Notes under the pieces: generated by a model
Seen by the model: the letters and a program-made list of their open reading frames with translations, nothing else
What the model was told of the DNA's origin: nothing
The model's database searches: none
Shown here: positions 6,558 through 41,258 of the stretch, piece by piece
Position numbering within the stretch: position 1 is the stretch's first letter
Layout of the letters: the number at the start of each line of letters is the position of its first letter
Program-made: the position numbers and the translations under genes
Assembly: GCA_020638675.1 (NCBI GenBank)
Contig: JACKID010000001.1
Span: 2,051,261 to 2,115,260 of the forward strand
Source of the DNA: Planctomycetota bacterium
Lineage (GTDB): Bacteria > Planctomycetota > UBA8742 > UBA2392
Length of the DNA: 64,000 nucleotides
Direction: 5' to 3'

Positions 6558-6597
6558 GCGGACTCCGGCGAACGTTGCGCGAGTATATGAGCGCGCG

Positions 6598-8785: not shown

Positions 8786-8816
8786 TGCCTGAGCCTAACA
8801 CGCGGCGTGCAAACGA

Positions 8817-10727: not shown

Positions 10728-10791
10728 TGGCGCACCTCTTAACCATAGGAACGGGAAATTCCGCTCCCGGTTCAGCTGCGGCTATTGGAGC

Positions 10792-11616: not shown

Positions 11617-11619
11617 GGC

Positions 11620-11889
11620 CTAGTCGTCTTCTCCGTCGACGAACCGCAGCGCCTCGTTCTGGAGCAGCGTAAGCTGCGAGTCGGAGTTGCCGGTCGCCTC
11701 GATAATTCCGCGCATCTGCTGTTTGCGTTCGTCACCCTCAATCAGCGTATCAATCAACAGCCGGTACAGGTGGGTTGTGCTGATCGGAATTGCATGGATG
11801 AGGTCGTCAAACTCGTCATCCGAGAACTGGAAGTTCCCGTGATCCGATTGAAGGGTAGCGGAGCCGTCGTCGTTCTTGATGATCTTCAT
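11620..11889 (-). CDS. Small acidic hypothetical protein
   Basis: 89 aa ORF sitting 3 nt after the FHA gene start and 24 nt before the next gene, same strand; operon position supports it being real. No domain seen. Confidence 0.45.
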   Translation of the reverse strand: MKIIKNDDGSATLQSDHGNFQFSDDEFDDLIHAIPISTTHLYRLLIDTLIEGDERKQQMRGIIEATGNSDSQLTLLQNEALRFVDGEDD

Positions 11890-11913
11890 TGAGGTGTGTT
11901 TCTCCGTTACGGT

Positions 11914-13110: not shown

Positions 13111-13326
13111 AGGTCGTTTTACACCTGTTCAGGCGTTGCCCGTCTTTCGCGGCTGCAATCCTTTGGGGTCAAGGAATTGTCGCGGTCAGCGGCAACTTGT
13201 GTCAAGCCCTTTCACAGAGCATCCCTGCGCACCGAGAATCACATCCTCACAGCATCCACGCAACATGCAAGCCGCCACCGGACACCCGTTGCCAAAGCCG
13301 CGGCGCAGTGGTTGCATACCGCCGAC

Positions 13327-14016
13327 ATGGTTGCCACGAACCCATCCGCAACGCCGGCCCTGCAAATCGAGGACCTGGTCAAGACCTATCCGGGCGGGAT
13401 TGAGGCCGTCAAGGGCGTCAGCCTAACCGTTCAGCAAGGCGAGATGCTTGCGATCATGGGCAAGTCCGGCAGCGGCAAGTCCACGCTCATGAGCCTGATC
13501 GGCACCCTCGACAAGCCGGACAGCGGCCGGATTCTGATCCATGGGCAGGACATCGCGCACATCAAGAACCTTGCCAGGTTCCGGCGCGAGGAAATCGGGT
13601 TCGTGTTCCAGTTGCACTATCTGCTCCCGCACCTGACGCTGCTCGACAACGTCGCGCTGCCCCTGTTGGGCAAGTCCGGTGCGCAAGACCTTGCCCGCAA
13701 GGCGCTTGAGCAGGTGGGGCTGTCGCACCGCGTGGGTCACGTGCCGGCCAAGGTCAGCGGCGGCGAACGCCAGCGTGCGGCCATCGCCCGCGCGATTGTG
13801 AATCGCCCGCGCGTTCTGCTTGCGGACGAGCCTACCGGCAACGTGGACAGCGAAAGCGAAGCCGTGCTGCTCGATCTGTTCCAGAGCCTGCAGGATGAAT
13901 TGGGGATGACGCTGATTGTAGTGACACACGAGCGCGGCGTGGCCGACCGGGCCGACCGAATCGTGCACTACAAAGACGGTCTGATTGAGCGGATCGAGAC
14001 CAGGGAATCAGTTTGA
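13327..14016 (+). CDS. ABC transporter ATP-binding protein (LolD/MacB-type ATPase)
   Basis: Walker A GKSGSGKST, ABC signature LSGGERQRAAIARA, Walker B VLLADEPTGNVD. Start placed at Met77 of ORF 13099..14016; the upstream 76 residues look like non-coding read-through. Confidence 0.85.
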   Translation: MVATNPSATPALQIEDLVKTYPGGIEAVKGVSLTVQQGEMLAIMGKSGSGKSTLMSLIGTLDKPDSGRILIHGQDIAHIKNLARFRREEIGFVFQLHYLLPHLTLLDNVALPLLGKSGAQDLARKALEQVGLSHRVGHVPAKVSGGERQRAAIARAIVNRPRVLLADEPTGNVDSESEAVLLDLFQSLQDELGMTLIVVTHERGVADRADRIVHYKDGLIERIETRESV

Positions 14017-14471
14017 GACTCGCAGCAGTCATATTGATGTTGGCACTCGGATTGGCGTGCGCCGGCTGCCTTGATTCGGGCAACATCCCCGGTGTCACCA
14101 CCGACCCCGAGGCCGCCGCCAAGGCCGCATTCCCGGAATTACCGCCCGCAGCCGAGGCCACGCAACTGAAAGATCGCGGGAGCAAGATGTTCAACGGGCT
14201 CGGCTGCCAGAGTTGTCATTCCACGACACACGAGCGCAACGGACTGATGGGACCGCCGCTGGGCGGAGTCAGCGACAGGGTGCTGGAACGCAAGGACCAT
14301 GACCCGTTGAAAGCGCGGCGCTGGCTGGTGATGCACATCAAGGACCCTTTGATGTACCCGAGCCCCTTCGCCGATCAAGCTGACTACAAGGGCACCCATA
14401 TGCCGCCCAACCCGCGCGTCACGGACGAAGACCTGCGCGCACTGGTTGAGTTTCTCTGGGCCCTGCGCTAA
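14013..14471 (+). CDS. Cytochrome c family lipoprotein (mono-heme)
   Basis: 152 aa; lipoprotein signal ending LACAGC; single CxxCH heme-binding motif (CQSCH). ATGA overlap with the upstream ABC ATPase. Confidence 0.7.
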   Translation: MRLAAVILMLALGLACAGCLDSGNIPGVTTDPEAAAKAAFPELPPAAEATQLKDRGSKMFNGLGCQSCHSTTHERNGLMGPPLGGVSDRVLERKDHDPLKARRWLVMHIKDPLMYPSPFADQADYKGTHMPPNPRVTDEDLRALVEFLWALR

Positions 14472-14503
14472 ACCCGCTTCCCAAGCGACTTCCGGAATTT
14501 GGC

Positions 14504-15589
14504 ATGCGCGGCCCGGCCGACCAACTCTCATTCCCTCCGGGAACCGAACTCGTGTTCGGGCCACAGGCCGCGCGCCGCCAGTTCATCAGCGACCGCATTG
14601 CCGAAGTCTCGAGAGGCTGGGGATTCACTGAGATCATTCTGCCCGCCTTCGACAGCGCCGAGACCTTCCGCGACCTCGGCGACGAGACCGAGCTTTACAA
14701 TCTTGTGGACCGCGAGGGCCACACGCTCACGCTGCGCGCAGACTTCACTTTGATCGCTGCCAAGGCCTTGGCGATGGAGTTGCGCCGGGAGCGACGCCAG
14801 ATCCGCGCCAGCTACGAAGGCCGCGTGTACCGCTTCGCGCCCAGCGGCCACGGTCATCGCGTCGAGCAGACCCAGCGCGGGCTGGAGTGGGTGAACGCAG
14901 CCGGCGCGACGTATGACGCAGCCGTACTGATGATGGCCCGCGAGTGCCTCAATGCGGGCGGCGCGGAGGATGCGATCATTGTCGTGGGGCACGGCGGGTT
15001 CATTCACGCAGCCCTCGGCGAAAAGGGGCGCAACGAGCGCCGCCTGATTGAAGCCCTTGACCACAAGAACCCGAGCCGCATCGCGCAGCTGGCACAGCGC
15101 GTCGGGCTTGATGCAGACACGGCCGCGCTGCTTGGGTCTTTGCCGCTGCTGACTGGCGGTCCGGAAGTGTTCAAGAACGCACGCGAGTTCAAGCTGAATG
15201 CCGCGGCAGACGCCGCGTTGTCCGAACTCGAGGGCCTGTATCGGTTGCTTGAGGAAGCCGGCGCGGCCGATCGTGTGCTGATCGACCTAGGCGAAGTGCG
15301 ACGCTCGGACTACTACAGCGGCTTCATGTTCAAGATCTACCACGAGGCCGTCGGCGAAGAGCTTGGCGGCGGGGGCCGCTACGATCGCCTGTTCGACCGC
15401 TTCGGGATGGACGTGCCGGCCGTGGGCTTCGGGTTCAACCTGGCCCGTTTGGCCGAGGCGACTTCACGCAACGGCTACGCGGGAACACCGCCGACTGCGA
15501 TAGCTTCGTCCGGCGGCGCTGACGCGCTGAAGAAGGTGCTGGAGCTGCGCCGTCAGGGCAAGCCAGTAGACCTGAAGGGGGATGCCTGA
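14504..15589 (+). CDS. hisZ: ATP phosphoribosyltransferase regulatory subunit HisZ (HisRS paralog lacking the anticodon-binding domain)
   Basis: 361 aa; class II aaRS-like core (RYDRLFDRFG, GFGFNLARL). Followed by a short-form hisG with overlapping stop/start. Confidence 0.8.
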   Translation: MRGPADQLSFPPGTELVFGPQAARRQFISDRIAEVSRGWGFTEIILPAFDSAETFRDLGDETELYNLVDREGHTLTLRADFTLIAAKALAMELRRERRQIRASYEGRVYRFAPSGHGHRVEQTQRGLEWVNAAGATYDAAVLMMARECLNAGGAEDAIIVVGHGGFIHAALGEKGRNERRLIEALDHKNPSRIAQLAQRVGLDADTAALLGSLPLLTGGPEVFKNAREFKLNAAADAALSELEGLYRLLEEAGAADRVLIDLGEVRRSDYYSGFMFKIYHEAVGEELGGGGRYDRLFDRFGMDVPAVGFGFNLARLAEATSRNGYAGTPPTAIASSGGADALKKVLELRRQGKPVDLKGDA

Positions 15590-16233
15590 TGCTGCGCATG
15601 GCACTCCCTACCGGGCGAATGCTGAAACAGGCTATGCCGTTTCTGGAAGCCGCAGGCTACGCTCCGAACGAGCCGCTGCATGAGACCCGCAAGCTGACCG
15701 TGCCCAGCAAATGCGGGCGCATTGAGTATCTGCTGGTGAAGCCGGTGGACGCCCCGCTGTATGTCGAGCAGGGCGTGGCGGAAGTCGGCGTGTGCGGCAA
15801 GGACGTGCTGATGGAAGTCGGCGCCGACCTGCTCGAGCCGCTCGACCTTGGGTTCGCTCGCTGCCGCATGGTCGTTGCAGGAAAGCCTGAGATCGAACGC
15901 AAGCTGGACAACCTGCTGTCGCCGGTCCGCGTCGCCAGCAAGTTTCCGCGGGTGGCGCAGCACTACTTCCTGAAGAAGGGTACGCCGTGCACGGTGTTCA
16001 AGCTGTCCGGGAGCGTAGAAATCGGTGCGGTGCTGGGGCTTTCTCACTACATTGTAGACATAGTGGAAACAGGCACGACGCTGAAGGAGAACGGGCTTGT
16101 CGTGCATGAAGAAATCGCGGAGTGCAGCGCGCGCCTGGCGGTGAATCGCGCCGCTTGGTACGCGAAGCTGGCGGAAGTGCGCGAGCTGCTGAACAACCTG
16201 AAACAGTCCGTCGAGGGGGCAAGCCATGACTGA
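15589..16233 (+). CDS. hisG: ATP phosphoribosyltransferase, short form
   Basis: 214 aa; HisG motifs (MLRMALPTGR, GVCGKDVL, DIVETGTTLKENGL). Confidence 0.9.
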   Translation: MLRMALPTGRMLKQAMPFLEAAGYAPNEPLHETRKLTVPSKCGRIEYLLVKPVDAPLYVEQGVAEVGVCGKDVLMEVGADLLEPLDLGFARCRMVVAGKPEIERKLDNLLSPVRVASKFPRVAQHYFLKKGTPCTVFKLSGSVEIGAVLGLSHYIVDIVETGTTLKENGLVVHEEIAECSARLAVNRAAWYAKLAEVRELLNNLKQSVEGASHD

Positions 16234-17626
16234 CACGCTGAACATCTACGAAGTCGGCTCTGACGAGTTCACCGCGTTCCAGAGGCGGCTTGCGGCGCGC
16301 GCGCTGTCTGACGACATGTCGCTGGGCGGCAAGCCGGGCGAATTGCTGCAGCGCGCCCAGGACAGCGGTGACTCCGAATTCGCGGCGTTCGCCACGGCGT
16401 TTTATGAAGGCCTCGCGCACACCGCGCGCGCAACGGTCGAACGCGTCATCCAGCGGGTCGAGACCATGGGGGATGAAGGCGTGCGCCAGTGCGCGCGACT
16501 GTTCGACGGGCAGGAATTGCCGACGGCACGCATCCAGGTCAACAAACTGGACCTGATGAAGGGCGCCGACGGCGTCGATGAAGCGCTGCTGAAGCAATGC
16601 ACTGACGAGATAATGCCGCGCCTGCGCAAGTTCCACGAGAAGCAGAGAGAAGCGTCGTGGCAGATTGACGACGACGGCGGCTCCGTCGGCGTGCGGGTAC
16701 AGCCGCTGCGCCGCGTCGGCCTGTACATTCCGGGTGGAACTGCCTGCTACCCCAGCACCCTGATGATGACGTATGTGGCGGCTCAGGTCGCAGGCGTCGA
16801 GGAGATCGCTGTCTTCACTCCGCCGGAGACCCTGGAAAAGTCCCCGCTGCTGTGCGCGCTGCTCAATGAGCTTGGCATCAATGAGGTGTTCCGCGTCGGC
16901 GGCGCGCAGGCCATCGCTGCTGCCGCCATCGGCACCGAGAAGATCGCCAGGGTCGACAAGATAGTAGGCCCGGGCAACATCTTCGTGGCAATCGCGAAGC
17001 AGATGCTCAGTGGACGCGTCGGCATTGACAGCTTTGCGGGCCCCAGCGAAATCGTCGTCGTGTTCGACGCATCGTCAGACCCGGCGCTGGTAGCCGCGGA
17101 CATGCTGGCCCAGGCCGAGCACGATGGTCACGCCGCCGCAATCGGCATCACCGACAGCGCCGAGCAGGCCGAGAAGGTGAAGGCAGAAGTCGCGAAGCAA
17201 CTCGCAGACCTGCCGCGTAAGGACATCATCGAAGTGTCCCTCAGGACCTACGGTGGAATTCTCTGCGTGCCGAGCAAAGGCTTTGCGTTCCGCTTTGCCG
17301 ACTCGATCGCGCCGGAACACCTTGAGTTGCATACCGAGGACGCCGAAAACGACGCCAAGCAGATCAAGAACGCGGGCGCAATCTTCATCGGCCCATACGC
17401 GCCGGAATCGTTCGGCGACTACAACGCCGGGCCAAACCACACGCTGCCCACGGCCGGCAGCGCGCGTTGGGCGAGCGCGCTCAGCGTGCGCGACTTCGTG
17501 CGCCACGTCAGCATCATCCGCGGCAGCAAAGAGCTTCTCGCGGCAAACAAGGATGCGGCCATCGGGCTTGCACGCGCCGAACAGCTGGAAGCCCATGCCC
17601 GCAGCCTCGAGAAGCGTTTCTCCTGA
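16226..17626 (+). CDS. hisD: Histidinol dehydrogenase
   Basis: 466 aa; HisD motifs (GPGNIFV, AGPSEIVVV, AQAEHDGHAAA). Overlaps hisG by 8 nt. Confidence 0.9.
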   Translation: MTDTLNIYEVGSDEFTAFQRRLAARALSDDMSLGGKPGELLQRAQDSGDSEFAAFATAFYEGLAHTARATVERVIQRVETMGDEGVRQCARLFDGQELPTARIQVNKLDLMKGADGVDEALLKQCTDEIMPRLRKFHEKQREASWQIDDDGGSVGVRVQPLRRVGLYIPGGTACYPSTLMMTYVAAQVAGVEEIAVFTPPETLEKSPLLCALLNELGINEVFRVGGAQAIAAAAIGTEKIARVDKIVGPGNIFVAIAKQMLSGRVGIDSFAGPSEIVVVFDASSDPALVAADMLAQAEHDGHAAAIGITDSAEQAEKVKAEVAKQLADLPRKDIIEVSLRTYGGILCVPSKGFAFRFADSIAPEHLELHTEDAENDAKQIKNAGAIFIGPYAPESFGDYNAGPNHTLPTAGSARWASALSVRDFVRHVSIIRGSKELLAANKDAAIGLARAEQLEAHARSLEKRFS

Positions 17627-18702
17627 TGAACGACACGACGCTTAAATATTTCAAGCAGCAGCTTCCGGGACTCGCGGGCGGCTACACGCTCGACGTGCCC
17701 GATTGCGCCATCAAGCTGAACCAGAATGAGAACGCCTGGGACTGGCCCGCGCACCTGAAGCAGGAAGTGTTCGAGCGCGTCCGCGACCTGCCGTGGAATC
17801 GCTACCCGCCGTTTACGCCGGACGCTTTCGTGGGCAAGGTTGCGGCACACATCGGGGCAGAACCGGGACAGGTGCTCGTCGGCAACGGCAGCAACGAGCT
17901 GCTCTATTCCGTGTTCGTCAGCACTCTTGAGCGCGGGCGCAAGGTCGTGATTCCGCAGCCCACGTTCACCGTCTACAAACTGCTGGCGGACCTGCTCGGT
18001 GCGGATGTCGAGACAGCGGGCCTGGACGATGAACTGCAGTACGACTCGGCCGCACTGGAGAAAGCCGCTGAGGACGCAGCGGTCGTCGTCCTGGCGACGC
18101 CCAACAACCCGACCGGAAGCGTGATCGACCCGACCGACCTGGAACATCTGGTCAATACCAGCGGCGCGCTCTGGGTCGTTGATGAAGCCTATTTCGAGTT
18201 TCACGGCGAGACCGCGATTGAGCTTACGCGAAGCTGCCGCAATCTCGTGGTCTTGCGCACGTTCAGCAAGGCGCTCGCGACGGCCGGGCTGCGCTTCGGC
18301 TGCATGGTCTGCCACCCGGAGGCGCGCCCGATCTTCGGCGCTGCGAAGCTTCCCTACAACCTGAACATCTTCACGATGGCCGCGGTCGAGACCGCGATTG
18401 AGAACGCAGTCACCATGAAGACCCGCGTGGAGGAAACCAAACGCGAGCGTGACCGCATCGCACGCAAGCTGCGCGAGTACACCGGCGTGAAGGTCTATCC
18501 AAGCCGCGCAAACTTCATCCTGTTCGAGACCGAGCGCAGCCCGCGTGACGTTTGGAAGGCTATGGTCGAGCGCGGCGTGTTAATCCGCGATGTCTCCGGC
18601 TATCCGCGATTGGGCAAGGCCCTGCGGGTAAGCATCGGGCGGCCGGAAGAAAACGATGCATTCATCAAGGCGCTGGAATACGCGATGACGGTGGTGGCAT
18701 GA
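17626..18702 (+). CDS. hisC: Histidinol-phosphate aminotransferase
   Basis: Start at ATG 17626 (overlapping the hisD TGA) within ORF 17467..18702; class II aminotransferase with the PLP lysine in FSKA; typical HisC N-terminus (IKLNQNENAW). Confidence 0.85.
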   Translation: MNDTTLKYFKQQLPGLAGGYTLDVPDCAIKLNQNENAWDWPAHLKQEVFERVRDLPWNRYPPFTPDAFVGKVAAHIGAEPGQVLVGNGSNELLYSVFVSTLERGRKVVIPQPTFTVYKLLADLLGADVETAGLDDELQYDSAALEKAAEDAAVVVLATPNNPTGSVIDPTDLEHLVNTSGALWVVDEAYFEFHGETAIELTRSCRNLVVLRTFSKALATAGLRFGCMVCHPEARPIFGAAKLPYNLNIFTMAAVETAIENAVTMKTRVEETKRERDRIARKLREYTGVKVYPSRANFILFETERSPRDVWKAMVERGVLIRDVSGYPRLGKALRVSIGRPEENDAFIKALEYAMTVVA

Positions 18703-19292
18703 CGCAGCGCACGGGTACGTTCACCCGCAAGACGGCCGAGACGCAGATCAACGTCGAAATCAACATTGATGGCGAAGGCAGCTACGACGTCGACACCGGC
18801 ATCGGGTTCCTGAACCACATGCTGGAGTTGTTCAGCAAACACGGACTGTTCGACCTTAAGGTGACCTGCAAGGGCGACCTGGAAGTAGACGCGCACCACA
18901 GTGTGGAAGACATCGCCATCGCCATCGGCGAAGCGTTCAAGCAGGCCGCCGGCGACAAGGCGGGCATCAACCGCTATGGCCACGCGTACATCCCGATGGA
19001 TGAGGCGTTGATTCGCTGTGCGCTCGACCTCAGCGGTCGCCCGTACCTGGCGTGCGAGCTCGGCAACATGCAGCGCGAAGAGGTGGGGGGGCTGCCGACG
19101 GAAATGGTCGAGCACTTCTGGCGCAGCTTCAGCACGCACTTCCCGATGAACCTGCACATTGACGTTCTGCGCGGCGACGACACGCACCATATCATTGAGG
19201 GCGTGTTCAAGGCGGTCACCAAGGCCCTGCGCGTTGCGCTGGACTTTGACCCGCGGCGCAAAGGCGTTCCCAGCACCAAGGGCGTGCTATAG
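18699..19292 (+). CDS. hisB: Imidazoleglycerol-phosphate dehydratase (IGPD domain only)
   Basis: 197 aa from ATG 18699 (overlaps the hisC stop); IGPD motifs (RKTAETQI, DTGIGFLNHML, DAHHSVEDIAIA, HHIIEGVFKA). No histidinol-phosphatase domain. Confidence 0.9.
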   Translation: MTQRTGTFTRKTAETQINVEINIDGEGSYDVDTGIGFLNHMLELFSKHGLFDLKVTCKGDLEVDAHHSVEDIAIAIGEAFKQAAGDKAGINRYGHAYIPMDEALIRCALDLSGRPYLACELGNMQREEVGGLPTEMVEHFWRSFSTHFPMNLHIDVLRGDDTHHIIEGVFKAVTKALRVALDFDPRRKGVPSTKGVL

Positions 19293-19294
19293 CC

Positions 19295-19903
19295 ATGGCC
19301 GCCGTCACGATCGTCGATTCCGGCATCTGCAATCTCGCCAGCATCTCGCGCTCGCTGGAGCGGGCAGGTGGGCGGGTGCACGTTGCGTCAGGACCAGAGG
19401 ATCTCACGCTCGCGCAGCGCCTGGTGCTGCCCGGGGTAGGAAGTTTTCCCGCAGGCATGAAGGCGTTGAACGAGCGCGGGCTCAGCGAGGCGATTCGCGA
19501 TTTCGCCGCGACCGGCAAGCCGGTGCTGGGAATCTGCCTGGGCATGCAGCTCCTGTTTGAAACGGGCGAAGAGTTCGAGCCCACAACGGGCCTGGGGCTG
19601 ATTCCAGGTCGGGTGCGAGAGATTCGGGCAGGAGACAATCCTTCACCGCACATGGGCTGGAACCGCGTAAACGTAACGGCCGACGATCCGTTGTTGCGTG
19701 ACCTGCCGGCCGAGCCGTTCCTGTATTTCGTGCACAGCTATGTGTGCGAGCCGGTCGAGGCTTCCGACGTCATCGGCGAGACTGAATACGCGGAGACATT
19801 CTGCAGCGTCGTGCGGCGAGGCAATGTGCGCGGCATCCAGGCGCACCCGGAAAAGAGCCAGCGCTGCGGCGCCAGGCTGCTGGAGAATTTCCTCAAGCTA
19901 TGA
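19295..19903 (+). CDS. hisH: Imidazole glycerol phosphate synthase, glutamine amidotransferase subunit
   Basis: 202 aa; class I GATase (GICLGMQLL with catalytic Cys; HSY; H-E near the C-terminus). Confidence 0.9.
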   Translation: MAAVTIVDSGICNLASISRSLERAGGRVHVASGPEDLTLAQRLVLPGVGSFPAGMKALNERGLSEAIRDFAATGKPVLGICLGMQLLFETGEEFEPTTGLGLIPGRVREIRAGDNPSPHMGWNRVNVTADDPLLRDLPAEPFLYFVHSYVCEPVEASDVIGETEYAETFCSVVRRGNVRGIQAHPEKSQRCGARLLENFLKL

Positions 19904-20634
19904 GCGACTTCACTCTCTATCCGGCCATTGATCTGCGACAGGGGCGCGTCGTCCGCCTGCAGCAAGGCCGCGCCGACGCCGAAACCACATACGGCGAAGA
20001 CGCCATGGAGGTTGCGCGCGAGTTCGAGGCACAGGGCGCCGAGTGGCTGCACGTCGTCAATCTCGACGGCGCGTTCGGCGACGCGAGCGAAAACCTGTCT
20101 GTCCTGAGCACAATCTGCGGCGTCATCGACATCCCCGTCGAATTCGGGGGCGGGCTGCGGTCCGCGAACGACGTCCGGCGAGCGCTCGACCTTGGCGCCG
20201 CCCGCGTGATTCTCGGTACGGTGGCGCTGCGAAAGCCTGAGCTGGTTCGCGAACTGGCCTCAAAGCATGCGGACAAGATCGCGGTCGGAATCGACGCACG
20301 AAACGGCATGGTCGCCGTGGAAGGCTGGGTCGAAACCAGCGAAACCTCGGCCGAAGAGTTGGCCCGCCGCATGATGGATGCCGGAGTGCGGCGCTTCATC
20401 TACACTGACATTGCGCGCGACGGCATGATGGTGGGGCCCGATCTGGACGGTGCCACGAAGCTCGCGCAGGGCGGTGCGGGAGTGATCGCCTCCGGTGGAG
20501 TTGGAACGCTGGAGCATGTGACGTCGGCCGCAACCGCGTCAGGCGTCGAGGGATTGATCGTCGGCAAGGCGTTGTATGAAGGGCGATTTACGGTAAGAGA
20601 GGCGCTGGAGGCGGTGAAAGGAACACGGACATGA
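19900..20634 (+). CDS. hisA: 1-(5-phosphoribosyl)-5-[(5-phosphoribosylamino)methylideneamino]imidazole-4-carboxamide isomerase
   Basis: 244 aa; HisA motifs ([53 protein letters not shown]). Confidence 0.9.
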   Translation: MSDFTLYPAIDLRQGRVVRLQQGRADAETTYGEDAMEVAREFEAQGAEWLHVVNLDGAFGDASENLSVLSTICGVIDIPVEFGGGLRSANDVRRALDLGAARVILGTVALRKPELVRELASKHADKIAVGIDARNGMVAVEGWVETSETSAEELARRMMDAGVRRFIYTDIARDGMMVGPDLDGATKLAQGGAGVIASGGVGTLEHVTSAATASGVEGLIVGKALYEGRFTVREALEAVKGTRT

Positions 20635-21398
20635 GCGACTTCCTGGTGATCCCGGCCATCGAGCTGCGCGGTGGCATGGCCCTGCGCTACGAATCTGTCG
20701 GCATGGGCACGCGCGCCAACCGCGTTGAGCCGATCGGCTTCGCGCGCCAGTTCGTCGAAGCCGGCGCCAGGATGCTGCACGTCTACAATCTCGACGGCCC
20801 GTTCATCGTGAGCCAGGCCGAGCACTCCGGCAGCGTGCTCGCCGGCGCCGAACGCAACCTGACCGTGATGGGCGAGATGGCCAAGACACTCAACGTACCG
20901 ATCCAGGTCAGCGGCGGTATCCGCGATTTCGAGAGCTTCAAGATGATCACGCGGCTTGGCATCCAGCGCGCCGCGATCGGCAGCTCGGCCATGCAGGATC
21001 CGTCGCTGGTCGCCGCCTGTGTTGCCGAAAATGCCGACGCCGCGGTTGTGTACATCGACGCCAAGGATGGCCGTCTTGTTTCGCAGGAGTGGATCAAGGA
21101 CGCAAAGGCCAGCGTGGCCGACGTCGCCGCCAAGGTTCGCGAAGCGGGCGTAAAGCATTTCATCTACCAGGACGTAGCGGCCGACGCGGCCGGCAACGGG
21201 CCTCGGGCAGCCGATGCCGCGCAGGTCGGTGCTGACGTTATTGTCACCGGCGGCGTCCAGACGCTCGACCACATCAAGGCCGCGGCCTCGGTCAGCGGCG
21301 TAAGCGGTGTGCTTGTCGGCAAGCCGCTGATGCAGGGGGAGTTCACCCTGCAGCAGGCCGAAGAATACGCCAAGGCCGGATTCGCGGCGCGAAGCTGA
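20631..21398 (+). CDS. HisA/HisF-family (beta/alpha)8 barrel paralog, divergent; function unknown
   Basis: 255 aa; clear HisA-like fold signatures ([52 protein letters not shown]) but an altered catalytic region (E for D in PAIEL; the RDG Asp is replaced) and a ~25-aa insertion. Sits between hisA and hisF with overlapping stop/start codons. Confidence 0.6.
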
Positions 21399-21400
21399 TC

Positions 21401-22171
21401 ATGCTTGCAAAACGACTCATCGTGTGCCTCGACGTGAAAGACGGCCGCGTCGTGAAGGGCGTGAATTTCGTGGGGCTGCGTGACGCAGGCGACCCAGTTG
21501 AGTGCGCGGTGCGCTACGACCGCGAAGAGGCCGACGAGCTGGTCTTTCTGGACATCACGGCCAGCAGCGACGAGCGCGACACGACCGTCGAGCTGGCCCG
21601 CCGCTGCGCGCTTGAGCTGAGCATTCCCTTCACCATCGGCGGCGGCGTTCGCAGCGTGGACGATTTCGAAAGGCTCCTGCGCGCCGGGGCGGACAAAGTG
21701 GCGATCAACAGCGCCGCCGTGAAGAACCCCGAATTGATCCGCCAGTGCTCGGAGCGCTTCGGCAAGCAGGCAGTTGTGCTCGCCGTGGATGCGCGTCGGA
21801 CCGGCCAGGGCTGGCACGTTTACGTGAAAGGTGGACGAGAGGACACCGGGATGGACGCGCTGGAGTGGATTCGGCAAGGGGTCGCTCTCGGCGCCGGCGA
21901 GATCCTGCTGACCAGCATGGACCGCGACGGCACAGGCAAAGGCTTTGACCTTGATCTCACCCGATCCGCGGCCGAAGCGGTGGCCGTGCCGGTGATCGCT
22001 TCCGGCGGCGTTGGTACACTGGAACATCTGGCCGAAGGCCTGCAAGCCGGGGCGGCTGCGGTGCTCGCGGCCGGGATATTCCATTTCGGGCAGCACAGCG
22101 TCGCGGAAGCCAAGCAGTTTCTGCGGGAGAGACACATCGCCGTGCGCCCGCCGGAGGCTATGCCCGCATGA
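21401..22171 (+). CDS. hisF: Imidazole glycerol phosphate synthase, cyclase subunit
   Basis: 256 aa; HisF motifs ([52 protein letters not shown]). Confidence 0.9.
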
Positions 22172-23478
22172 GCGACATTACCGAACAGGCGCCGGTCAGC
22201 GGACTGAAGTTCGACAGCAACGGGTTGCTGCCGTGCATCATGCAGGACGCCCGCAGCGGTGAAGTGCTGACGCTGGCGTGGATGAATCTGGAGGCCTTCA
22301 AGCACACGCTCGAGACCGGGCTGGTGACGTTCTATTCGCGCAGCCGCAAACAGCTTTGGACCAAAGGCGAAACCAGCGGCAACATCATGCGCGTGGCCGA
22401 GCTGAAGCTCGACTGCGATGGTGACGCACTGGTCGCCCGCGTGCTGCCGGAAGGTCCGGCATGCCACACCGGCGAAGGCGACTGCTTCTTCCAGACCGTG
22501 TTCAAGAACAAGGCGGTGCTCAGCGAAGTCGAGGGAGCGCCCGCACGGACAGACGGCTGGGGCGCGCGCCTGGGTACACTGATGGATGACGTGCGCACGC
22601 TGCTGCAAGAGCGCAAGGCAACGCTGCCCGAAGGCAGCTACAGCACGTACCTGTTCACCAAGGGTCTCGACAAGATTCTCAAGAAACTCGGTGAAGAGGC
22701 CACCGAGACAATCGTCGCCGCCAAGGGAAGCGACCGCAGTGAGCTGATTGGCGAGATGTGTGACCTCGTGTTCCACCTAATGGTGCTGATGGTGGAAAAG
22801 GAAGTCAGCTTCGAAGACATCCGGCGCGTCATGCAGAAGCGCCACCGCAGCGACGAGGCCAAGGCTTCCCCGGACACTGAGTTGAAGGTCAGTCGCCCGG
22901 TTGAGTGCGAGCCGCTTGAGAAGCGCCTGCTTCAGCAGCTCGATCCCAGCCTTCACCGTGACGTGACGCGCGCGCTGGAAGTCATGTACCGCGCGCACAA
23001 GGGTCAGCTGCGCGACGGGGGACTGCCCTACGCGACCCACCCGCTGGAGGTTGCACTGGTGGCCGTCGAGGACGTCAAGCTTCGCGAGCGCGACGAGATC
23101 ATCACGGCGCTGCTGCACGACGTGCTCGAAGACGACATGGAAACCACGCCGGCCGAGTTGACCGACAAGTTCGGCGAAAAGGTTTCGGCCGGGGTCGTGC
23201 TGCTGACCAAGATGTACAAGCGCGACGGCTCACCCAAAGAGCTGGGGCTGCAGCGCTACTATCAGGGCCTGCGCACGGCGCCTGGCTGGGTGCGCGCGAT
23301 CAAGATGTGCGACCGTGTGCACAACCTGCGGTGCCTGCCGGACTCCGGCCGCAGTGCCGAAGAGATCGCCCACTATGTGAAGGAATCACGGGCGCACCTG
23401 CTGCCCCTTGCGGCCAGCACGACGGACCAGCGGCTGCTGCGCGCCGGCGACCTGCTGTTGAAGGAACTCTACAAGTAG
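22168..23478 (+). CDS. hisIE: Tri-domain fusion: phosphoribosyl-AMP cyclohydrolase (HisI) / phosphoribosyl-ATP pyrophosphatase (HisE) / C-terminal RelA-SpoT-type HD hydrolase domain (small alarmone hydrolase-like)
   Basis: 436 aa. Residues ~1-110 are HisI ([32 protein letters not shown]). Residues ~125-215 are HisE/MazG-like ([44 protein letters not shown]). Residues ~250-436 match the RelA/SpoT HD domain ([49 protein letters not shown]). Confidence 0.85.
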
Positions 23479-23479
23479 G

Positions 23480-26400
23480 TCACACGCGGGAGTCGTGCAG
23501 GTCGCTGTCGGCTTCCGGCAGCTTTTCAGGCGCCTCGGACTGCTTCGACCTGCCGCGCTTGAACCAGCCAAGCAAGTCATCCAGCAGCACATAGAACGCA
23601 GGCACCACGAGCAGACTCAACGCCGTCGCGACACCCATGCCGCCAAGCACACCGATTGCCATCGGCCGTCGAATCTCGCCACCCGGCCCAAGCGCCATTG
23701 CCGCCGGCAACGCCGCCATCATGGTGGCCACGCTGGTCATCAGGATCGGGCGCAAACGAATCGGCCCGGCCTTCTGCATTGCTTCGCGCGTCGACAGCCC
23801 CTTCAGGCGCAACTGGTTGGCGTAGTCGACGAGGATGATCGAGTTCTTCTTGGCGATGCCGATCAGCAGCAACAGCCCGATCATGCTGAAAATGTTCAAC
23901 GTCTGACCTGTCGAGATAAGCGCCAGGGTCGCACCCGCAACGGTAATCGGCACGATGGTCAGCACGGTCACCGGGTGCCAGAAACTGTTGAACTGCGCGG
24001 CCAGCACCATGTAGGCCACGAGAATGCCCATCAGCATCGCGAAGATCAGGCTCTGGATCGCGTTGTTGTAGTCCGCGGCGGCGCCGCTCATGACGACGCG
24101 ATAGCCCTCGGGCAACTTGGCGCCGAGTTCTTTGCCTTTCTGAAGCGCCTCGTCCTGTGTATGGCCCGCGCCGGGGTTGCCCATGATGGTGATCGAGCGT
24201 TCGCGGCCTTCGCGATTGATGCTCTGGAGTACGGGGCGTTCTTCATGCCTTACCAGCAGCGAAAGCGGTACAAGCTTGCCGTTGCTGCTGCGCACCTGCA
24301 GTCGCTCGATGTCGGCGGGGCTCTGGCGCTGCTCCTTCAACAGTCGCAGTCGTACATCCAGGCGACGCCCGGAGTCGGAGAACTTGCCCACACGAACGCC
24401 GCCGATCAGTGCGTTCAACGTAACGGCCACGTCCTGCACCGGCACACCAAGATCGGCCGCGCGATCGCGGTCCGGCGTGATGCGCAGCTCGGGCATGCCG
24501 ACCTGGTAGTTGGTGTCCACGTCGGTCGCATAGCCGCTGTCCTCAAGCTCCTGGGCGAGCTGCTGCGACAACTCACCGAGTTTCTCGAAGTCGGGGCCGC
24601 GCACGGAGAACTCGATCGGGTAGCCGCGCCGCGCGGCAAAGCCGCTCTGCGACAGGTCCTGCACGCGGGCCTTCACGCCCGGAATCGAGTTGATCGCCTT
24701 GCCCAGCTCCGCGCCGATTTCGTTCTGCGTCATGTCGCGCTCATCGGGCGGCACGAGCGTCACGAACATGCGGCCCTCGTTGACGTTGCCACCGCTGAAA
24801 CCGCCCACGATGGCGAATGCGCGCTTCACGTACTTGTGGTTGTTGACGATCTCTTCGGCCTTCTTGAACAGGTCGTCACTCTCTTCCATGTTGCTGCCGA
24901 CGGCCGACTTCAGTGAAACCATCAGGCGGCTCTGGTCCTGGCTGGGCACAAACTCCTGCGGCATCACAAACATCAGCCACATCGCCCCGGCGAAAACACC
25001 ACCGGCGACCAGCAGCACGAAAGCCGGGAAACGCACGGTGGGCTTCAGCGCGCGGTCGTACAGGCCCTTGAGCCCGTCGAAAGCCTTGTCCGCCAGCTTG
25101 CCCATGCCCTTGCGTTCCAGCTTGCCGGTGTCGCGCAGAAGTTGCGCACAGCGCGCCGGGGCAAGGGTGACCGCTTCGATGTAGCTGAACATCACCGCAA
25201 GGCTGAGCGTAACGCCGAATTGCAGGAAGAACCGCCCGATCACGCCGTCCATGAAAATGACCGGCACAAAGATGGCGATCACGGCCACCGTCGCGGCCAG
25301 CGCCGCGAACGCAATTTCTGTCGTACCGCCGATGGAGGCTTTCAGTCGGTCCGCGCCCTCTTCGCTGTGACGGAAAATGTTCTCCATCACCATGATTGCG
25401 TCATCGACCACGATGCCGACCGCCAGTGCCAGCGCCAGCAGCGTGAACGTATTGAGGGTAAACCCGAGGAAGTAGATCACGGCAATTGTGCCGAGCAGCG
25501 ACATCGGGATTGCCAGGATGACGTTGAGCGTGCTGCTAAGCGATCCAAGGAATATCCAGCAGACCAGCGCGGTGAGCAGCACGGCGAGAATCAGTTCGAA
25601 TTCGATCTCGTGAACGGATTCCTCGACGAACTTCGTCGAGTCAAAGTTGATGCCAAGCTCCATGTCTTCGGGCAGCCCGGCGCGAATATCCTCCAGCTCG
25701 GCGCGCACGGCTTGCGCAACGGCGACGGCGTTGGCACCGCGCTGCTTGCGGATGCCCAGGCCCTGCGCGGGTACGCCGTTCACACGCGACATGCGGCGCT
25801 CGTCCTCGAAGCCGTCTTCGACCAGCGCGACCTCGTGCATGTACGTGGGGACACCGTCCACTTCACGAATCACGAGGTTGCGCAACTGGTCAAGATGCAG
25901 TGCCTCGCCCATTACCCGAACGTTCACTTCACGCCCGACGGTTTCCATGCGCCCGGCGGGCAGCTCAACGTGCTCGCGGCGCAGGGCATTCGTGATATCC
26001 GCAACGGTAAGACCCTTGCCCGCCAGCTTGTCGGCATCCACCCAGATGCGCACGTTGCGCTCAAGGTAGCCGCCGAGAGTTACTTCGCCGACGCCCTCGA
26101 TTGTCTGCAGCCGCTCCATCACGCGATAGCGCACCGTGTCAGCCAGCTTCTGGCGCGAATACGGCCCGCTCAGGCTGATGTACATGATAGGGCGATCTTC
26201 CGGGTTGGTCTTGCGCACTACCGGCGGGTCGATGTCTTCCGGCAGGCGCCGCTGGGCCTGGGCGATCACCGCCTGCACTTCCTGCACGGCGAGGTCGATG
26301 TCGCGGTCGATCTGGAACTCAATCGTAACCTGCCCGCGCCCCTGTTCGGATTCGCTGGTGATGTTCTGGACGCCCTCGACCTGCACGAGAGCCTCTTCGA

Positions 26401-26599
26401 GGATCTCGACCACGTCCTGCTCAACGGCTTCCGGTGCGGCATTTTCCCAATCGACGCTGATGCTTACATTCGGGTAGTCAACGTCCGGGAACTGGCTGAT
26501 TCCGATTCGCATGGCCGCCACGACGCCAAAGACGATGGTCGCGCCCATGATCATCCAGGCGAGCACCGGTTTGCGAACGCAGAGCTCGGTCAGCTTCAT
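23480..26599 (-). CDS. Efflux RND transporter permease subunit (AcrB/CzcA family)
   Basis: 1039 aa, 12-TM RND architecture with two large periplasmic loops; RND motifs throughout. Confidence 0.9.
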   Translation of the reverse strand: MKLTELCVRKPVLAWMIMGATIVFGVVAAMRIGISQFPDVDYPNVSISVDWENAAPEAVEQDVVEILEEALVQVEGVQNITSESEQGRGQVTIEFQIDRDIDLAVQEVQAVIAQAQRRLPEDIDPPVVRKTNPEDRPIMYISLSGPYSRQKLADTVRYRVMERLQTIEGVGEVTLGGYLERNVRIWVDADKLAGKGLTVADITNALRREHVELPAGRMETVGREVNVRVMGEALHLDQLRNLVIREVDGVPTYMHEVALVEDGFEDERRMSRVNGVPAQGLGIRKQRGANAVAVAQAVRAELEDIRAGLPEDMELGINFDSTKFVEESVHEIEFELILAVLLTALVCWIFLGSLSSTLNVILAIPMSLLGTIAVIYFLGFTLNTFTLLALALAVGIVVDDAIMVMENIFRHSEEGADRLKASIGGTTEIAFAALAATVAVIAIFVPVIFMDGVIGRFFLQFGVTLSLAVMFSYIEAVTLAPARCAQLLRDTGKLERKGMGKLADKAFDGLKGLYDRALKPTVRFPAFVLLVAGGVFAGAMWLMFVMPQEFVPSQDQSRLMVSLKSAVGSNMEESDDLFKKAEEIVNNHKYVKRAFAIVGGFSGGNVNEGRMFVTLVPPDERDMTQNEIGAELGKAINSIPGVKARVQDLSQSGFAARRGYPIEFSVRGPDFEKLGELSQQLAQELEDSGYATDVDTNYQVGMPELRITPDRDRAADLGVPVQDVAVTLNALIGGVRVGKFSDSGRRLDVRLRLLKEQRQSPADIERLQVRSSNGKLVPLSLLVRHEERPVLQSINREGRERSITIMGNPGAGHTQDEALQKGKELGAKLPEGYRVVMSGAAADYNNAIQSLIFAMLMGILVAYMVLAAQFNSFWHPVTVLTIVPITVAGATLALISTGQTLNIFSMIGLLLLIGIAKKNSIILVDYANQLRLKGLSTREAMQKAGPIRLRPILMTSVATMMAALPAAMALGPGGEIRRPMAIGVLGGMGVATALSLLVVPAFYVLLDDLLGWFKRGRSKQSEAPEKLPEADSDLHDSRV

Positions 26600-27714
26600 G
26601 GCTTGGCTCCAGCGGGAGCACCTGCAGTGCTGTCCTTCTGGCCGGCAATCTTCACGGCCGCGCCATCGCGCAGCGCGTCTGCGCCGCGTACTACGACCAC
26701 TTCACCGGGCTCGACACCGCTTCGTACTTCGATGCGCCCGTCCGGCGTGCGCAATCCGATTTCGATCACGCGTTCGTGGGCTTTGCCGTCTTTCACGACA
26801 TATACGAGCATGCCCTTCTCACTGGCGCGCACGGCCGTTTCGGGCACGGTGGGGGCGTTGGGACTGGAGCCCACGGGAACTTTCACCAGTGCGAAACTTC
26901 CGGGAGTCAAGGTCGAGGCCGGCTCACCACTGACTTCTGCCGTCACGTTGACCATGCGGGTCGCGGGATCGGCGGACGCCCCGATGTGGATTATGGACGC
27001 GGTGTACTCGGCTTTCTCCCCGCTCACGCTAAAGCGCGCCTCCATGCCCTTGGCCATGGCGGACGCCGCCTCTTCGGGCACGGTGAACTTCAGCAGTAAT
27101 GGATCGCGCCGGAGCAGGCGTGCGATCACCGTGCCGGGCTGGACCCACTGCCCGGTCTGCACGAGGCGCGACTGAATGATGCCCGCGATCGGTGATGTCG
27201 GGGTGGCGTTCTGCAGGTCAAGCTCAGCCTGTGAGAATTCGGCGGCGCGCTCGCGCTCATTCGCCTCCGCTACGGCGACCTTGGTGCGCCACGCCTCAAT
27301 TTCCTCTTTTGAGAAGATGGAGCCCTTGGGGTCCTCGCGGCGCTTGAGGCCTTCCTGGGCCTCCTTCAGCTCCGCCTTCGCCCGGTCGTGGGCGGCCTGC
27401 GCGGCGTTGTATGAGTACTGAAAGCGTTTGGGTTCGATCTCGGCCAGAACGGTTTCGGGAGTAACGGCCTGGCCTTCGCGAAAGTTGATTTTCTCGACCA
27501 CGCCCTGGACCTGCGCCGTGATCAGCACCTCTTCAAAGGCGTCAACCGAGCCGGTGGCGCTGACCACGTACTCGACCTTGCGGCCCTCAATCGTTTCAAC
27601 ACCGACGGGGAAGGCGCGTGCCTTTGGCGCACCCGAGCCGCCGTCGTCGTCGCCACCGCAGGCTGCCACCAGTGCCGCGAGGCACGCACAAGCCAAAATG
27701 GACACCAGCCTCAT
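26596..27714 (-). CDS. Efflux RND transporter periplasmic adaptor subunit (membrane fusion protein), lipoprotein
   Basis: Start placed at Met45 (MRLVSILACACLAALVAACGG lipobox) because the first 44 codons of ORF 26596..27846 run into the tRNA-Val gene. HlyD-family coiled-coil and beta-barrel regions present. Overlaps the RND permease by 4 nt. Confidence 0.8.
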   Translation of the reverse strand: MRLVSILACACLAALVAACGGDDDGGSGAPKARAFPVGVETIEGRKVEYVVSATGSVDAFEEVLITAQVQGVVEKINFREGQAVTPETVLAEIEPKRFQYSYNAAQAAHDRAKAELKEAQEGLKRREDPKGSIFSKEEIEAWRTKVAVAEANERERAAEFSQAELDLQNATPTSPIAGIIQSRLVQTGQWVQPGTVIARLLRRDPLLLKFTVPEEAASAMAKGMEARFSVSGEKAEYTASIIHIGASADPATRMVNVTAEVSGEPASTLTPGSFALVKVPVGSSPNAPTVPETAVRASEKGMLVYVVKDGKAHERVIEIGLRTPDGRIEVRSGVEPGEVVVVRGADALRDGAAVKIAGQKDSTAGAPAGAKP

Positions 27715-27831
27715 GCGGCTTCCCCTCGGGTACATATCTCGCTTATACGCTGCGAGCCTTTGCAACAGACTCGATATCGCCGATATTCCAGCCGTTGTTC
27801 TGCGACGGCTTTGCGCTATCTTTACGCCCGC

Positions 27832-27908
27832 GGACGTGTAGCTCAATTGGTTAGAGCATCTGCTTTACACGCAGAGGGTCGGGGGTTCGAGTCCCTCCAC
27901 GTCCACCA
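27832..27908 (+). tRNA. tRNA-Val (anticodon TAC)
   Basis: Manual cloverleaf: acceptor GGACGTG/CACGTCC, D-arm GCTC...GAGC, anticodon stem TCTGC/GCAGA with loop TTTACAC (anticodon TAC), T-arm GGGGG TTCGAGT CCCTC, discriminator A, encoded CCA. Confidence 0.85.
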
Positions 27909-38808: not shown

Positions 38809-38856
38809 CGTTATCCAGAAGGTAGAGTCCGCACGGACTTCCGGAAAGGGGGCAAG

Positions 38857-39237: not shown

Positions 39238-39456
39238 CCCCGCGCCCGTTAAGCGGGGGTGACATTCGGGGCATCGGGACGCGGGCGTGCGGCCCCGCCA
39301 AACCACATCGCGCGACCAGTCCGACGAAGCTTCAGCGAAGGCGGAAGACGCGGCAAACAGCCAAAGCAACCATAGGTAAACACCGGTGAACAAGTGAATG
39401 GATGTTCACCGATGGTTGCGTTGGCCGTTGCACTACTTCGCTTCAAGCGGAGCCAA

Positions 39457-40018: not shown

Positions 40019-40250
40019 GTCGTGTCTCCGTGTGTGGTTGCTGAAACAAGTATCCACACCGGTGCGACATTCTAGGCCGATTTAAGGCCAACCCGGATGC
40101 CAACCAACGCCCACAGAGCCTTATTTAGAGGGCTTCACGGGCGCCACAAAGGTTTTTTCGGGCTATTTTCGGGCAGCCAAAAAGGGGCTCGTCCGCGTAG
40201 CGCACATTCCGTCATCTCCCAATCAGCTGCTACTGACCCGCCGGTTGGGC

Positions 40251-41234: not shown

Positions 41235-41258
41235 CTACGTTCTAGCCTCCCTTTGCGC

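Follow-up and report, generated by a model that had tools for sequence, protein, structure and literature searches.

A conserved HisA paralogue with an apparently rebuilt active site, genetically linked to a small-alarmone-hydrolase-like domain in uncultured Planctomycetota

Introduction

Why would a histidine operon that already encodes a canonical HisA keep a second, divergent HisA-like gene directly behind it? The question is raised by a 64,000-nucleotide stretch of DNA from a Planctomycetota bacterium (contig JACKID010000001.1; below, the window, with positions counted from its first letter). According to the list of open reading frames (ORFs), a compact histidine operon on its plus strand (14504–23478) comprises hisZ, hisG, hisD, hisC, hisB (imidazoleglycerol-phosphate dehydratase, IGPD), hisH, hisA, the gene considered here, hisF, and hisIE. 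We call the additional gene and its product, named "hypothetical protein" at NCBI, HisA2.

HisA, the related PriA, and TrpF are a textbook system for the emergence of new enzyme functions after gene duplication, with the evidence coming mostly from laboratory evolution or from Actinomycetota. An earlier reading of the same DNA from its letters alone (below, the original prediction) had described HisA2 as a HisA-like barrel with altered catalytic residues, and had offered as possibilities a new or PriA-like specificity, a regulatory pseudo-enzyme, and a recent duplicate under relaxed selection. Here we follow up these proposals by comparative analysis of HisA2, its relatives, and its genomic neighborhood.

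Results

Identity of HisA2

As the original prediction had noticed, two HisA-like genes follow each other in the operon, both products opening with MSDF..PAI(D/E)LR.G; the upstream one is a genuine hisA according to TIGR00007 (Table 1). HisA2 is translationally coupled on both sides, as had also been proposed, via an ATGA overlap of the hisA stop and HisA2 start codons (20631–20634) and a 2-nt gap that separates its stop codon from the ATG of hisF (21401). It aligns with the upstream HisA over the full length at 36% identity (BLASTP, E = 2e-51), matches the Pfam family His_biosynth (PF00977, 134 bits), and contains the SGGIRD and TGGV loops, so that the fold and the phosphate loops are indeed kept; however, it stays below every HisA equivalog cutoff (TIGR00007, 129 bits vs. 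229; PRK13585, 123 vs. 243). An assignment to HisF was rejected, as HisA2 falls far below the respective cutoff (TIGR00735, 45 bits vs. 294.55) and is nearer to HisA than to HisF, with which it shares 28% identity in a partial alignment. Judging by these comparisons, HisA2 most aptly counts as a new subfamily within the HisA/PriA group.

Active site

[quoted passage not shown] To compare these positions, 65 HisA2 family members and 176 ordinary HisA domains were aligned to the family profile.

The β1 catalytic Asp is replaced, in agreement with the original prediction: position 11 is Glu in 65/65 HisA2 proteins, vs. Asp in 175/176 ordinary HisAs. Further differences were observed at positions 20 (Tyr in 65/65 vs. 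Leu in 169/176), 180 (Gln in 64/65 vs. Thr in 175/176), 184 (Ala, Ser, or Thr vs. Arg or Lys in 153/176), and 186 (Ala or Ser vs. Gly in 173/176). The RDG region, which had been described as changed, is thus changed around its catalytic residue (in the window, Thr→Gln180, Arg→Ala184, and Gly→Ala186), but the Asp itself is kept as Asp185, and in the family this position is always acidic (Asp in 52 proteins and Glu in 13; Asp in 164/176 ordinary HisAs). The predicted insertion after NLDG-x-F also exists; however, it consists of 13 residues (59–71), not of about 25, and this loop-2 segment has the same length in 65/65 HisA2 proteins, vs. mostly 0–3 residues in ordinary HisAs.

Several further positions vary within the family. 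Position 143 (Asp127 of Thermotoga maritima HisA, Tm, and Asp130 of Mycobacterium tuberculosis PriA, Mt) is Asp in 57 proteins, including that of the window, Asn in seven, and Ala in one, vs. Asp or Glu in 176/176 ordinary HisAs. Position 118 (Ser103 of Salmonella enterica HisA and Thr105 of MtPriA) is Ser in 47 proteins and Asp, Asn, Thr, or Glu in the rest, and the equivalent of Ser81 (MtPriA numbering) is Ser in 47 and Gly in 18. Position 152, the PriA Arg143 site, is Gln in 63/65. At the same time, Arg19 (Arg or Lys), His50 (63/65), Asp55, Gly96, Arg98, Gly117, Trp154, Gly207/Gly208, and Gly230/Lys231 are kept.

The features of HisA2 are not due to chance, as they are fixed in the 65 sequences of the family and practically never occur in the 176 ordinary HisAs. 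Neither did all catalytic residues prove to be conserved nor did HisA2 cluster with ordinary HisA, the two outcomes that the original prediction had named as speaking against it. Taken together, these alignments show a rebuilt catalytic face in the N-terminal half of the barrel, and the protein likely retains what is needed to bind a large ligand of the ProFAR type with two phosphates around an altered catalytic center.

Predicted structure

The AlphaFold2 model of HisA2 based on the family alignment has a mean predicted local distance difference test score (pLDDT) of 86.9 and a predicted template modeling score (pTM) of 0.86. Confidence is low only at residues 16–31 (loop 1) and 62–66 (the tip of the insertion), which are the most conserved loops, and the rest of the insertion lengthens helix α2 at its N-terminal side. 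Foldseek comparison of the model with PDB retrieved MtPriA in complex with PRFAR (the ribulosyl isomer of ProFAR) or with rCdRP (reduced carboxyphenylamino-deoxyribulose phosphate), other PriAs, and S. enterica HisA variants (TM-scores 0.70–0.75), and a profile search of the PDB sequences placed Streptomyces coelicolor PriA first (132 bits).

Distribution and origin

A search of 5.8 billion protein clusters yielded 46 HisA2 clusters (P0001–P0046) spanning 100% down to 49% identity, below which identity falls sharply to 33%, the level of ordinary HisA. Their members are 254–259 aa long, save one 233-aa entry, and all source names given are metagenome-assembled genomes (MAGs) of Planctomycetes or Planctomycetota (one of Planctomycetaceae). 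The profile search of 1.84 billion representatives clustered at 50% identity retrieved one HisA2 representative (440 bits) and fragments, followed by ordinary HisAs or HisA–HisF fusions, the latter accounting for the double-length high scorers; no intermediates or distant HisA2-like proteins were found among these representatives. A scan in which each GTDB species was represented by one genome found HisA2 in 19 species, and the most divergent member found, from the additional contig L103, has 251 aa and 48% identity.

The HisA2 profile scores the neighboring HisA of its own lineage with up to 199 bits, vs. 150–175 bits for other HisAs of the representative scan, making the genuine HisA of the lineage the best-scoring target outside the family; therefore, HisA2 originated from tandem duplication of the local hisA. 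On one related contig examined, L021, hisA is directly followed by hisF. Recent transfer of HisA2 was rejected by the compositional test, as the GC content at its third codon positions (GC3), 0.83, is in line with that of the neighboring genes. Overall, this distribution shows an ancient, lineage-specific tandem duplicate of hisA in one uncultured lineage of Planctomycetota.

Among the "ordinary" sequences, P0239 (L106, 2248–2973) alone has Glu in the β1 position; it was considered as a relative and rejected, since it has no insertion and is located beside a ThiF-family gene on an unrelated contig. It contains PAIELRGG, lacks the distal-phosphate Arg, and lies outside any his context, and may be a second, independent HisA-derived paralogue.

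Selection

Pairwise estimates by the Nei–Gojobori method for 15 genome pairs (for genuine HisA, over the pairs where it is present) gave ratios of nonsynonymous to synonymous substitution rates (dN/dS) of 0.02–0.27 for HisA2 and 0.05–0.24 for genuine HisA. Within HisA2, dN in residues 1–100 is about 1.2- to 6-fold below that in residues 101–255, and in the inserted-loop region (residues 56–77) it is 0–0.10 at dS of 0.4–1.8; the insertion is the most constrained part of the protein. No frameshifts or stop codons were found in the 23 loci read. In the alignment of 25 HisA2 sequences, the invariant residues include Glu11, Arg13, Tyr20, Glu21, Gly24, Gly26, Thr27, Arg28, Arg31, NLDGPF, Glu64, and His65, and further Gly67–Ala73, Asn76, Leu77, GG-RD, Trp154, IYQ, Gly208, and GK. 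The L103 protein differs by Arg19→Gln and His65→Tyr; Glu11, Tyr20, Glu21, Glu64, Gln180, and the insertion persist even there. The dN/dS values, the constraint on the insertion, and the invariant residues allow us to reject relaxed selection and recent duplication, in line with the depth of the family, which extends down to 48–49% identity over at least 19 GTDB species.

Linkage to an HD hydrolase domain

The HisIE protein of the operon (436 aa, 22168–23478) carries a C-terminal HD_4 domain (PF13328, 47 bits vs. the cutoff of 27.2), whose nearest solved relative is the small alarmone hydrolase (SAH) of Pseudomonas aeruginosa (PDB:6yvc, 6z3n; E = 1.6e-16), which hydrolyzes (p)ppGpp and (p)ppApp, with the Rel/SpoT hydrolase domains and Mesh1 also among the relatives. 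Its catalytic motifs (H..HD..ED..DRxHN; DR(V/I)HNLR) are all invariant in 16–19 sequences, and the domain is probably a RelA/SpoT-type, SAH-like phosphohydrolase. Known SAHs hydrolyze (p)ppGpp, (p)ppApp, and NADPH, removing the ribose 3'-pyrophosphate or 2'-phosphate (PMC9765508).

The gene order hisH–hisA–HisA2–hisF–hisIE::HD is conserved in 17 of the 19 GTDB species loci, with the fusion intact in 17/17, and on three further contigs, L103–L105, so that the paralogue does occupy the same operon position in relatives, a point that the original prediction had proposed to check. HisA2 and the HD domain co-occur in all 19 GTDB species loci and in L103–L105. This link to a domain encoded two genes downstream, the most telling hint in the locus, is absent from the original prediction. 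The HisIE::HD fusion forms 39 clusters spanning 92% down to 60% identity, followed by an abrupt drop to plain 240-aa HisIE at 53% or less, and this boundary coincides with that of the 46 HisA2 clusters.

The HD alignment was also used to scan metagenomes, but this was discarded as a source of relatives: generic RelA/SpoT proteins fitted the LLHDVLED pattern, with no members of the HD subfamily among the matches listed, and the one locus with hisF nearby, L024, encodes a 697-aa long RelA/SpoT homologue (RSH) and is thus coincidental. Our literature search on HisA paralogues in Planctomycetes, SAH–HisI fusions, and ppGpp together with ProFAR found no description of a HisA2–SAH pairing or a HisIE::SAH fusion.

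The 2011 survey of RSH genes reported none of the RelA/SpoT family in the Planctomycetes–Verrucomicrobia–Chlamydiae (PVC) superphylum, with one planctomycete sampled (PMC3153485). The HD domain may thus be an orphan hydrolase with no synthetase to match: if the lineage considered here also lacks synthetases, the domain would be in the position of Mesh1 in animals and may act on something other than an alarmone.

A lineage retaining HisA2 and the HD gene alone

In the two remaining GTDB loci, L009 and L013, HisA2 is followed only by a standalone 209-aa HD gene. The hisZGDCBHA and hisF–hisIE blocks are absent from these loci, and exactly the HisA2 and HD ORFs survive. Up to the start of hisZ, the chromosome in both loci is collinear with the window; according to tblastx, L013 follows it over 4210–14496 and then jumps to HisA2 (20631–21398) and to HD (22885–23556). 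Two more adjacent pairs of HisA2 and standalone HD were found, L107 and L108, the former in a different neighborhood. Of the solo members, three were included in the tree, L009, L013, and L107; these form one clade (97% bootstrap) nested within the operon-bearing members (98%), and thus the solo arrangement is derived. The pair L009–L013 is under purifying selection (ω 0.18).

No plain HisIE of the lineage type (above 53% identity) was found in the 5.8 billion clusters, while one at approximately 70–80% would be expected, which suggests, within the limits of MAG completeness, that the solo lineage lost hisIE and the histidine genes rather than moved them. The comparisons made here thus show a genetic tie of HisA2 to an apparently SAH-type hydrolase that persists without the his operon. 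The solo sub-lineage represents a natural deletion experiment and shows that the HisA2–HD pair has value of its own.

Genes encoding an ABC-type ATPase and a small cytochrome c (window 13099–14471; L013 8687–9907) precede hisZ with a gap of 32 nt, and in L009 and L013 they adjoin HisA2 directly upstream; the HisA2–HD module probably shares their transcription unit.

Discussion

Function of the HisA2–HD pair

Since a canonical HisA is encoded immediately upstream, HisA2 is not the ProFAR isomerase of the pathway. The two leading readings are a neofunctionalized enzyme and a regulatory pseudo-enzyme, and the readings beyond the latter become progressively less likely, from a redundant ProFAR isomerase through TrpF and an incidental neighbor to a decaying copy. 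We tentatively put first, as the most probable single reading albeit well short of certainty, that HisA2 is a neofunctionalized HisA-derived barrel which works with the HD hydrolase as a two-gene module on a ProFAR-like phosphorylated ribosyl nucleotide. Among the possibilities raised by the original prediction, a new function is therefore the one favored, while PriA-like specificity appears unlikely.

An active enzyme is favored because the acid pair of Glu11 and Asp/Glu185 is conserved, and the changes cluster where one would place the half of ProFAR that does not react. The latter suggests, from the pattern of substitutions, a different "aglycone" half in the ligand, and the new invariant Arg28 and Arg31 would be suited to an extra phosphate. 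AdeK, a PriA paralogue probably handling a modified ProFAR-type nucleotide, sets a precedent for such recruitment (PMC13055916). In the mechanism we propose, HisA2 would bind a ProFAR-like, doubly phosphorylated ribosyl nucleotide whose non-reacting half may differ from 5-aminoimidazole-4-carboxamide (AICAR) ribotide, e.g., by an extra ribose-linked phosphate or pyrophosphate recognized by the new Arg-rich loops, and would perform Amadori-type ring opening and isomerization via Glu11 and Asp185. The HD hydrolase would act on this metabolite, or else on its precursor or product, by stripping off a (pyro)phosphate linked to ribose; we infer that both proteins act on a common nucleotide-type metabolite. 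On this reading, the module arose within the histidine operon and can persist outside it.

A more specific and rather speculative version, to which we give a modest chance, is that HisA2 and the orphan HD constitute a hitherto unrecognized two-enzyme nucleotide pathway acting, e.g., on ProFAR-type or ring-opened purine nucleotides with a 2'- or 3'-(pyro)phosphate, which the HisA2 loops would recognize and HD would remove. Such substrates could arise, for example, when his enzymes process (p)ppApp-like nucleotides, or could be another ribosylamine derived from an alarmone.

Several observations weigh against the favored reading of a neofunctionalized enzyme. Position 143 is variable (Asp, Asn, or Ala) and position 185 toggles between Asp and Glu, which is unusual for strictly catalytic residues, and His65 and Arg19 are lost in the most divergent HisA2 member. 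The mirror-tree-style correlation of residual distances is highest for HisA2 with HisIE (0.53) and weak with HD (0.37); being too weak and non-independent, it was discarded as evidence of coupling. That the solo lineage lost its histidine genes is read from incomplete MAGs and short contigs. Finally, the replacement of the β1 Asp by Glu, along with the loss of the Thr170-equivalent, could equally mean lost catalysis and retained binding, that is, a sensor.

This last point leads to the main rival, a regulatory pseudo-enzyme, which we consider possible but clearly less probable than the enzyme. HisA2 would then bind ProFAR, PRFAR, or another nucleotide without turnover and control, or be controlled by, the HD domain, which would tie the hydrolysis of an alarmone or phosphorylated cofactor to the levels of metabolites. 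The binding residues are kept while the catalytic Asp11 and the Thr170-equivalent are replaced and Asp143 is variable. With the substitutions D7N and D11N, authentic HisA and PriA bind the ligand without turnover (PDB:5ahf, 5a5w, 2y88); the strongly conserved loops of low pLDDT fit ligand- or partner-gated loops, and the genetic link of HisA2 and HD is tight. However, the invariant Glu11 and the acid at position 185 in 65/65 proteins form a conservative, catalysis-competent pair, rather than Asn or Ala, and a ProFAR or PRFAR sensor would have no ligand in the solo lineage, if the latter truly lacks the his pathway.

Less likely again, indeed improbable, is a second, specialized ProFAR isomerase serving particular conditions, or channeling between HisA and HisF/HisH. 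The position between hisA and hisF with coupling to both, the retention of both phosphate sites, Trp154, Arg19, and Arg98, and the weak HisA activity kept by AdeK (PMC13055916) agree with it. HisA2, however, scores below all HisA equivalog cutoffs, carries Glu for Asp and Gln for Thr at positions where 175/176 ordinary HisAs have Asp and Thr, and has lost Asp143 in 8/65 members; moreover, together with HD it is kept at loci from which hisA, hisF, hisH, and hisIE have disappeared by deletion.

The chance is slimmer still that HisA2 is a dedicated PRA isomerase replacing TrpF, which would be a naturally evolved parallel to PriA or to the HisA variants from laboratory evolution. The Asp127-equivalent is dispensable in a part of the family, and work by Jürgens et al. 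in 2000 is said to have conferred TrpF activity on TmHisA by the D127V substitution. The best PDB profile matches of HisA2 are PriAs, and SubTrpF2 provides a precedent (PMC13055916), but Arg19, the distal-phosphate Arg98, and Trp154, all changed in the TrpF-specialized SubTrpF2, are kept in HisA2, and Gln152 occupies the position where PriA needs Arg143 for PRA. The obligate link to an HD hydrolase would have no rationale, and the context is his, not trp.

We consider it about as doubtful that the linkage is incidental, HisA2 being, e.g., a structural partner of HisF/HisH, and HD independently acting as the missing histidinol-phosphate phosphatase or as a general alarmone hydrolase. No histidinol-phosphate phosphatase gene was seen in or near the operon, and a nearby PHP-domain (polymerase and histidinol phosphatase) protein (window 37969–39393, minus strand; L103 15991–16806), tried as HisJ, was rejected, as it rather resembles the 3',5'-bisphosphate nucleotidase (pAp phosphatase)/RNase RNM. 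Fusion to HisIE would fit a pathway enzyme. On the other hand, four independent contigs from at least two neighborhoods have HisA2 followed by standalone HD, two separate deletions spared exactly these two ORFs, the phyletic limits of HisA2 and HD are identical, and no HD-family histidinol phosphatase was found in a literature search aimed at it. Lastly, although HisA2 evolves faster than any other protein of the operon (mean distance 0.55 vs. 0.24–0.44 for the others), a decaying tandem duplicate is refuted by the low dN/dS, the intact reading frames, and the many invariant residues, including those of the inserted loop.

Relation to known systems

HisA proper (EC 5.3.1.16; S. enterica, PDB:5a5w; T. 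maritima, PDB:1qo2) shares with HisA2 the (βα)8 fold, the Pfam family, the phosphate sites, Arg19, His50, the Trp145-equivalent, and the β6 acid. HisA2 differs from it by the β1 Glu, Gln for Thr, A-(D/E)-A for R-D-G, the 13-residue insertion in loop 2, and a new loop 1; it is also below all NCBIfam HisA cutoffs and is kept where the pathway genes are deleted. PriA, the bifunctional HisA/TrpF of Actinomycetota (PDB:1vzw, 2y85, 3zs4), is the best profile and structural match in PDB, with Arg19 and His50 conserved and the numbering and length identical through residue 58. In contrast to PriA, HisA2 has no equivalent of Arg143 (Gln152), has Glu11 for Asp11 and the extra insertion in loop 2, and belongs to planctomycetes, where it coexists with a canonical HisA and thus is not the sole HisA-type gene.

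Two natural second copies standing beside a housekeeping HisA/PriA enzyme and carrying fixed active-site substitutions are SubTrpF2, specific to TrpF, and AdeK of the adechlorin cluster (PMC13055916). SubTrpF2 has changed Arg19, Arg85, Thr105, Trp145, and Thr170 (PMC13055916); HisA2 keeps Arg19, Arg85, and Trp145 and so shows the reverse pattern. AdeK, thought to handle a chlorinated ProFAR-type nucleotide, is under relaxed selection in a nucleoside-antibiotic gene cluster (PMC13055916), whereas HisA2 is strongly constrained, resides in the his operon or alone with HD, and has the catalytic Asp itself changed. A shift of function in a HisA barrel via insertion into, or remodeling of, a loop after duplication has been obtained in laboratory evolution of S. 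enterica HisA by innovation–amplification–divergence (dup13-15, D10G; PDB:5ac7, 5g1t, among others). There, a 3-residue duplication in loop 1 led to TrpF activity, while HisA2 has a 13-residue insertion in loop 2 and a replaced catalytic residue.

The HD partner belongs to the family of small alarmone hydrolases (P. aeruginosa SAH, PDB:6yvc and 6z3n; Xanthomonas campestris SAH; metazoan Mesh1) and has all their catalytic motifs. It differs from them in its partners, HisIE in the fusion or a HisA-like barrel in the pair, in the family-specific motifs LTKMYKRDG and RYYxGL, and in its occurrence in a phylum without RSH genes in the 2011 survey (PMC3153485).

Thus, the locus adds to the HisA/PriA/TrpF system a natural, ancient tandem hisA duplicate from another phylum, with the base swapped from Asp to Glu, the inserted loop frozen by selection, and a tie to an alarmone-hydrolase-type domain. 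If the substrate is identified, a new branch of nucleotide or alarmone metabolism could follow, together with a role for a SpoT-like orphan hydrolase where, at the level of the phylum, stringent-response enzymes are thought to be missing, and a well-dated example of neofunctionalization for studies of enzyme evolution. The two-enzyme pathway, if true, would mean that natural innovation by duplication opened a new route of metabolism or alarmone clearance in a phylum from which RelA/SpoT enzymes are reported to be absent. If HisA2 is only a sensor or a weak isozyme, it would still make a clean case study, although of narrower interest; the interest is also limited by the substrate and the mechanism being inferred and by the lineage being uncultured.

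Features of the locus and its surroundings

Table 1. Features of the histidine operon and of HisA2 in the window.
Feature	Position	Strand	Evidence
hisZ–hisG–hisD–hisC–hisB (IGPD)–hisH	14504–19903	+	ORFs, tightly packed in one direction; same order at 15 related loci (tblastn); Pfam annotation of related loci
Genuine hisA, 244 aa	19900–20634	+	TIGR00007, 251 bits vs. cutoff 229; canonical PAIDL, IDARNG, YTDIARDG, and SGGV motifs
HisA2, 255 aa, HisA-derived (βα)8 barrel	20631–21398	+	ORF, Pfam, BLASTP, family alignment, AlphaFold2 model
HisA2 Glu11 codon (GAG) at the β1 catalytic Asp position	20661–20663	+	Window sequence and family alignment
HisA2 loop 1, residues 19–31, with family-invariant Y20, E21, T27, R28, R31	20685–20723	+	Family alignments
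HisA2 13-residue insertion, loop β2α2 and start of helix α2, residues 59–71	20805–20843	+	Present in 65/65 family members
HisA2 YQDVAADA, residues 179–186, remodeled β6 catalytic segment	21165–21188	+	Site table; PriA alignment
hisF, 256 aa	21401–22171	+	TIGR00735, 338.6 bits vs. cutoff 294.55
HisIE portion of the fusion protein (PRA-CH, the phosphoribosyl-AMP cyclohydrolase, plus PRA-PH, the phosphoribosyl-ATP pyrophosphatase)	22168–22860	+	Pfam and curated family models
SpoT/RelA-type HD_4 hydrolase domain, SAH-like, fused to HisIE	22861–23478	+	Pfam HD_4, 47 bits

The features of the operon are collected in Table 1. Rfam models yielded no riboswitch or leader anywhere in the 64-kb window, including the region upstream of the his operon, the single Rfam match being a tRNA gene at 27832–27905. 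The PADLOC models of defense systems did not match HisA2, HisIE::HD, or the standalone HD.

Downstream of the operon, the window contains an RND (resistance–nodulation–division) efflux pump on the minus strand (23480–27846), while in two related genomes, L104 (14621–21353) and L105 (11812–15069), genes of restriction–modification, GmrSD, and Abi (abortive infection) systems are located approximately 0.5–3 kb downstream of the his operon, which marks this flank as a variable island site. The PHP-domain ORF of the window carries about 200 extra N-terminal residues that match no family.

A low-GC patch at 40001–42000 (GC 0.55 vs. approximately 0.63; GC3 0.60–0.64 vs. approximately 0.8) contains two minus-strand ORFs (40251–41234 and 41259–41765), one with a phage tail collar domain and the other with no family match, and was possibly acquired horizontally. 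On the other side of the operon, a single 613-aa ORF on the minus strand (4716–6557) combines homocysteine S-methyltransferase and methylenetetrahydrofolate reductase domains.

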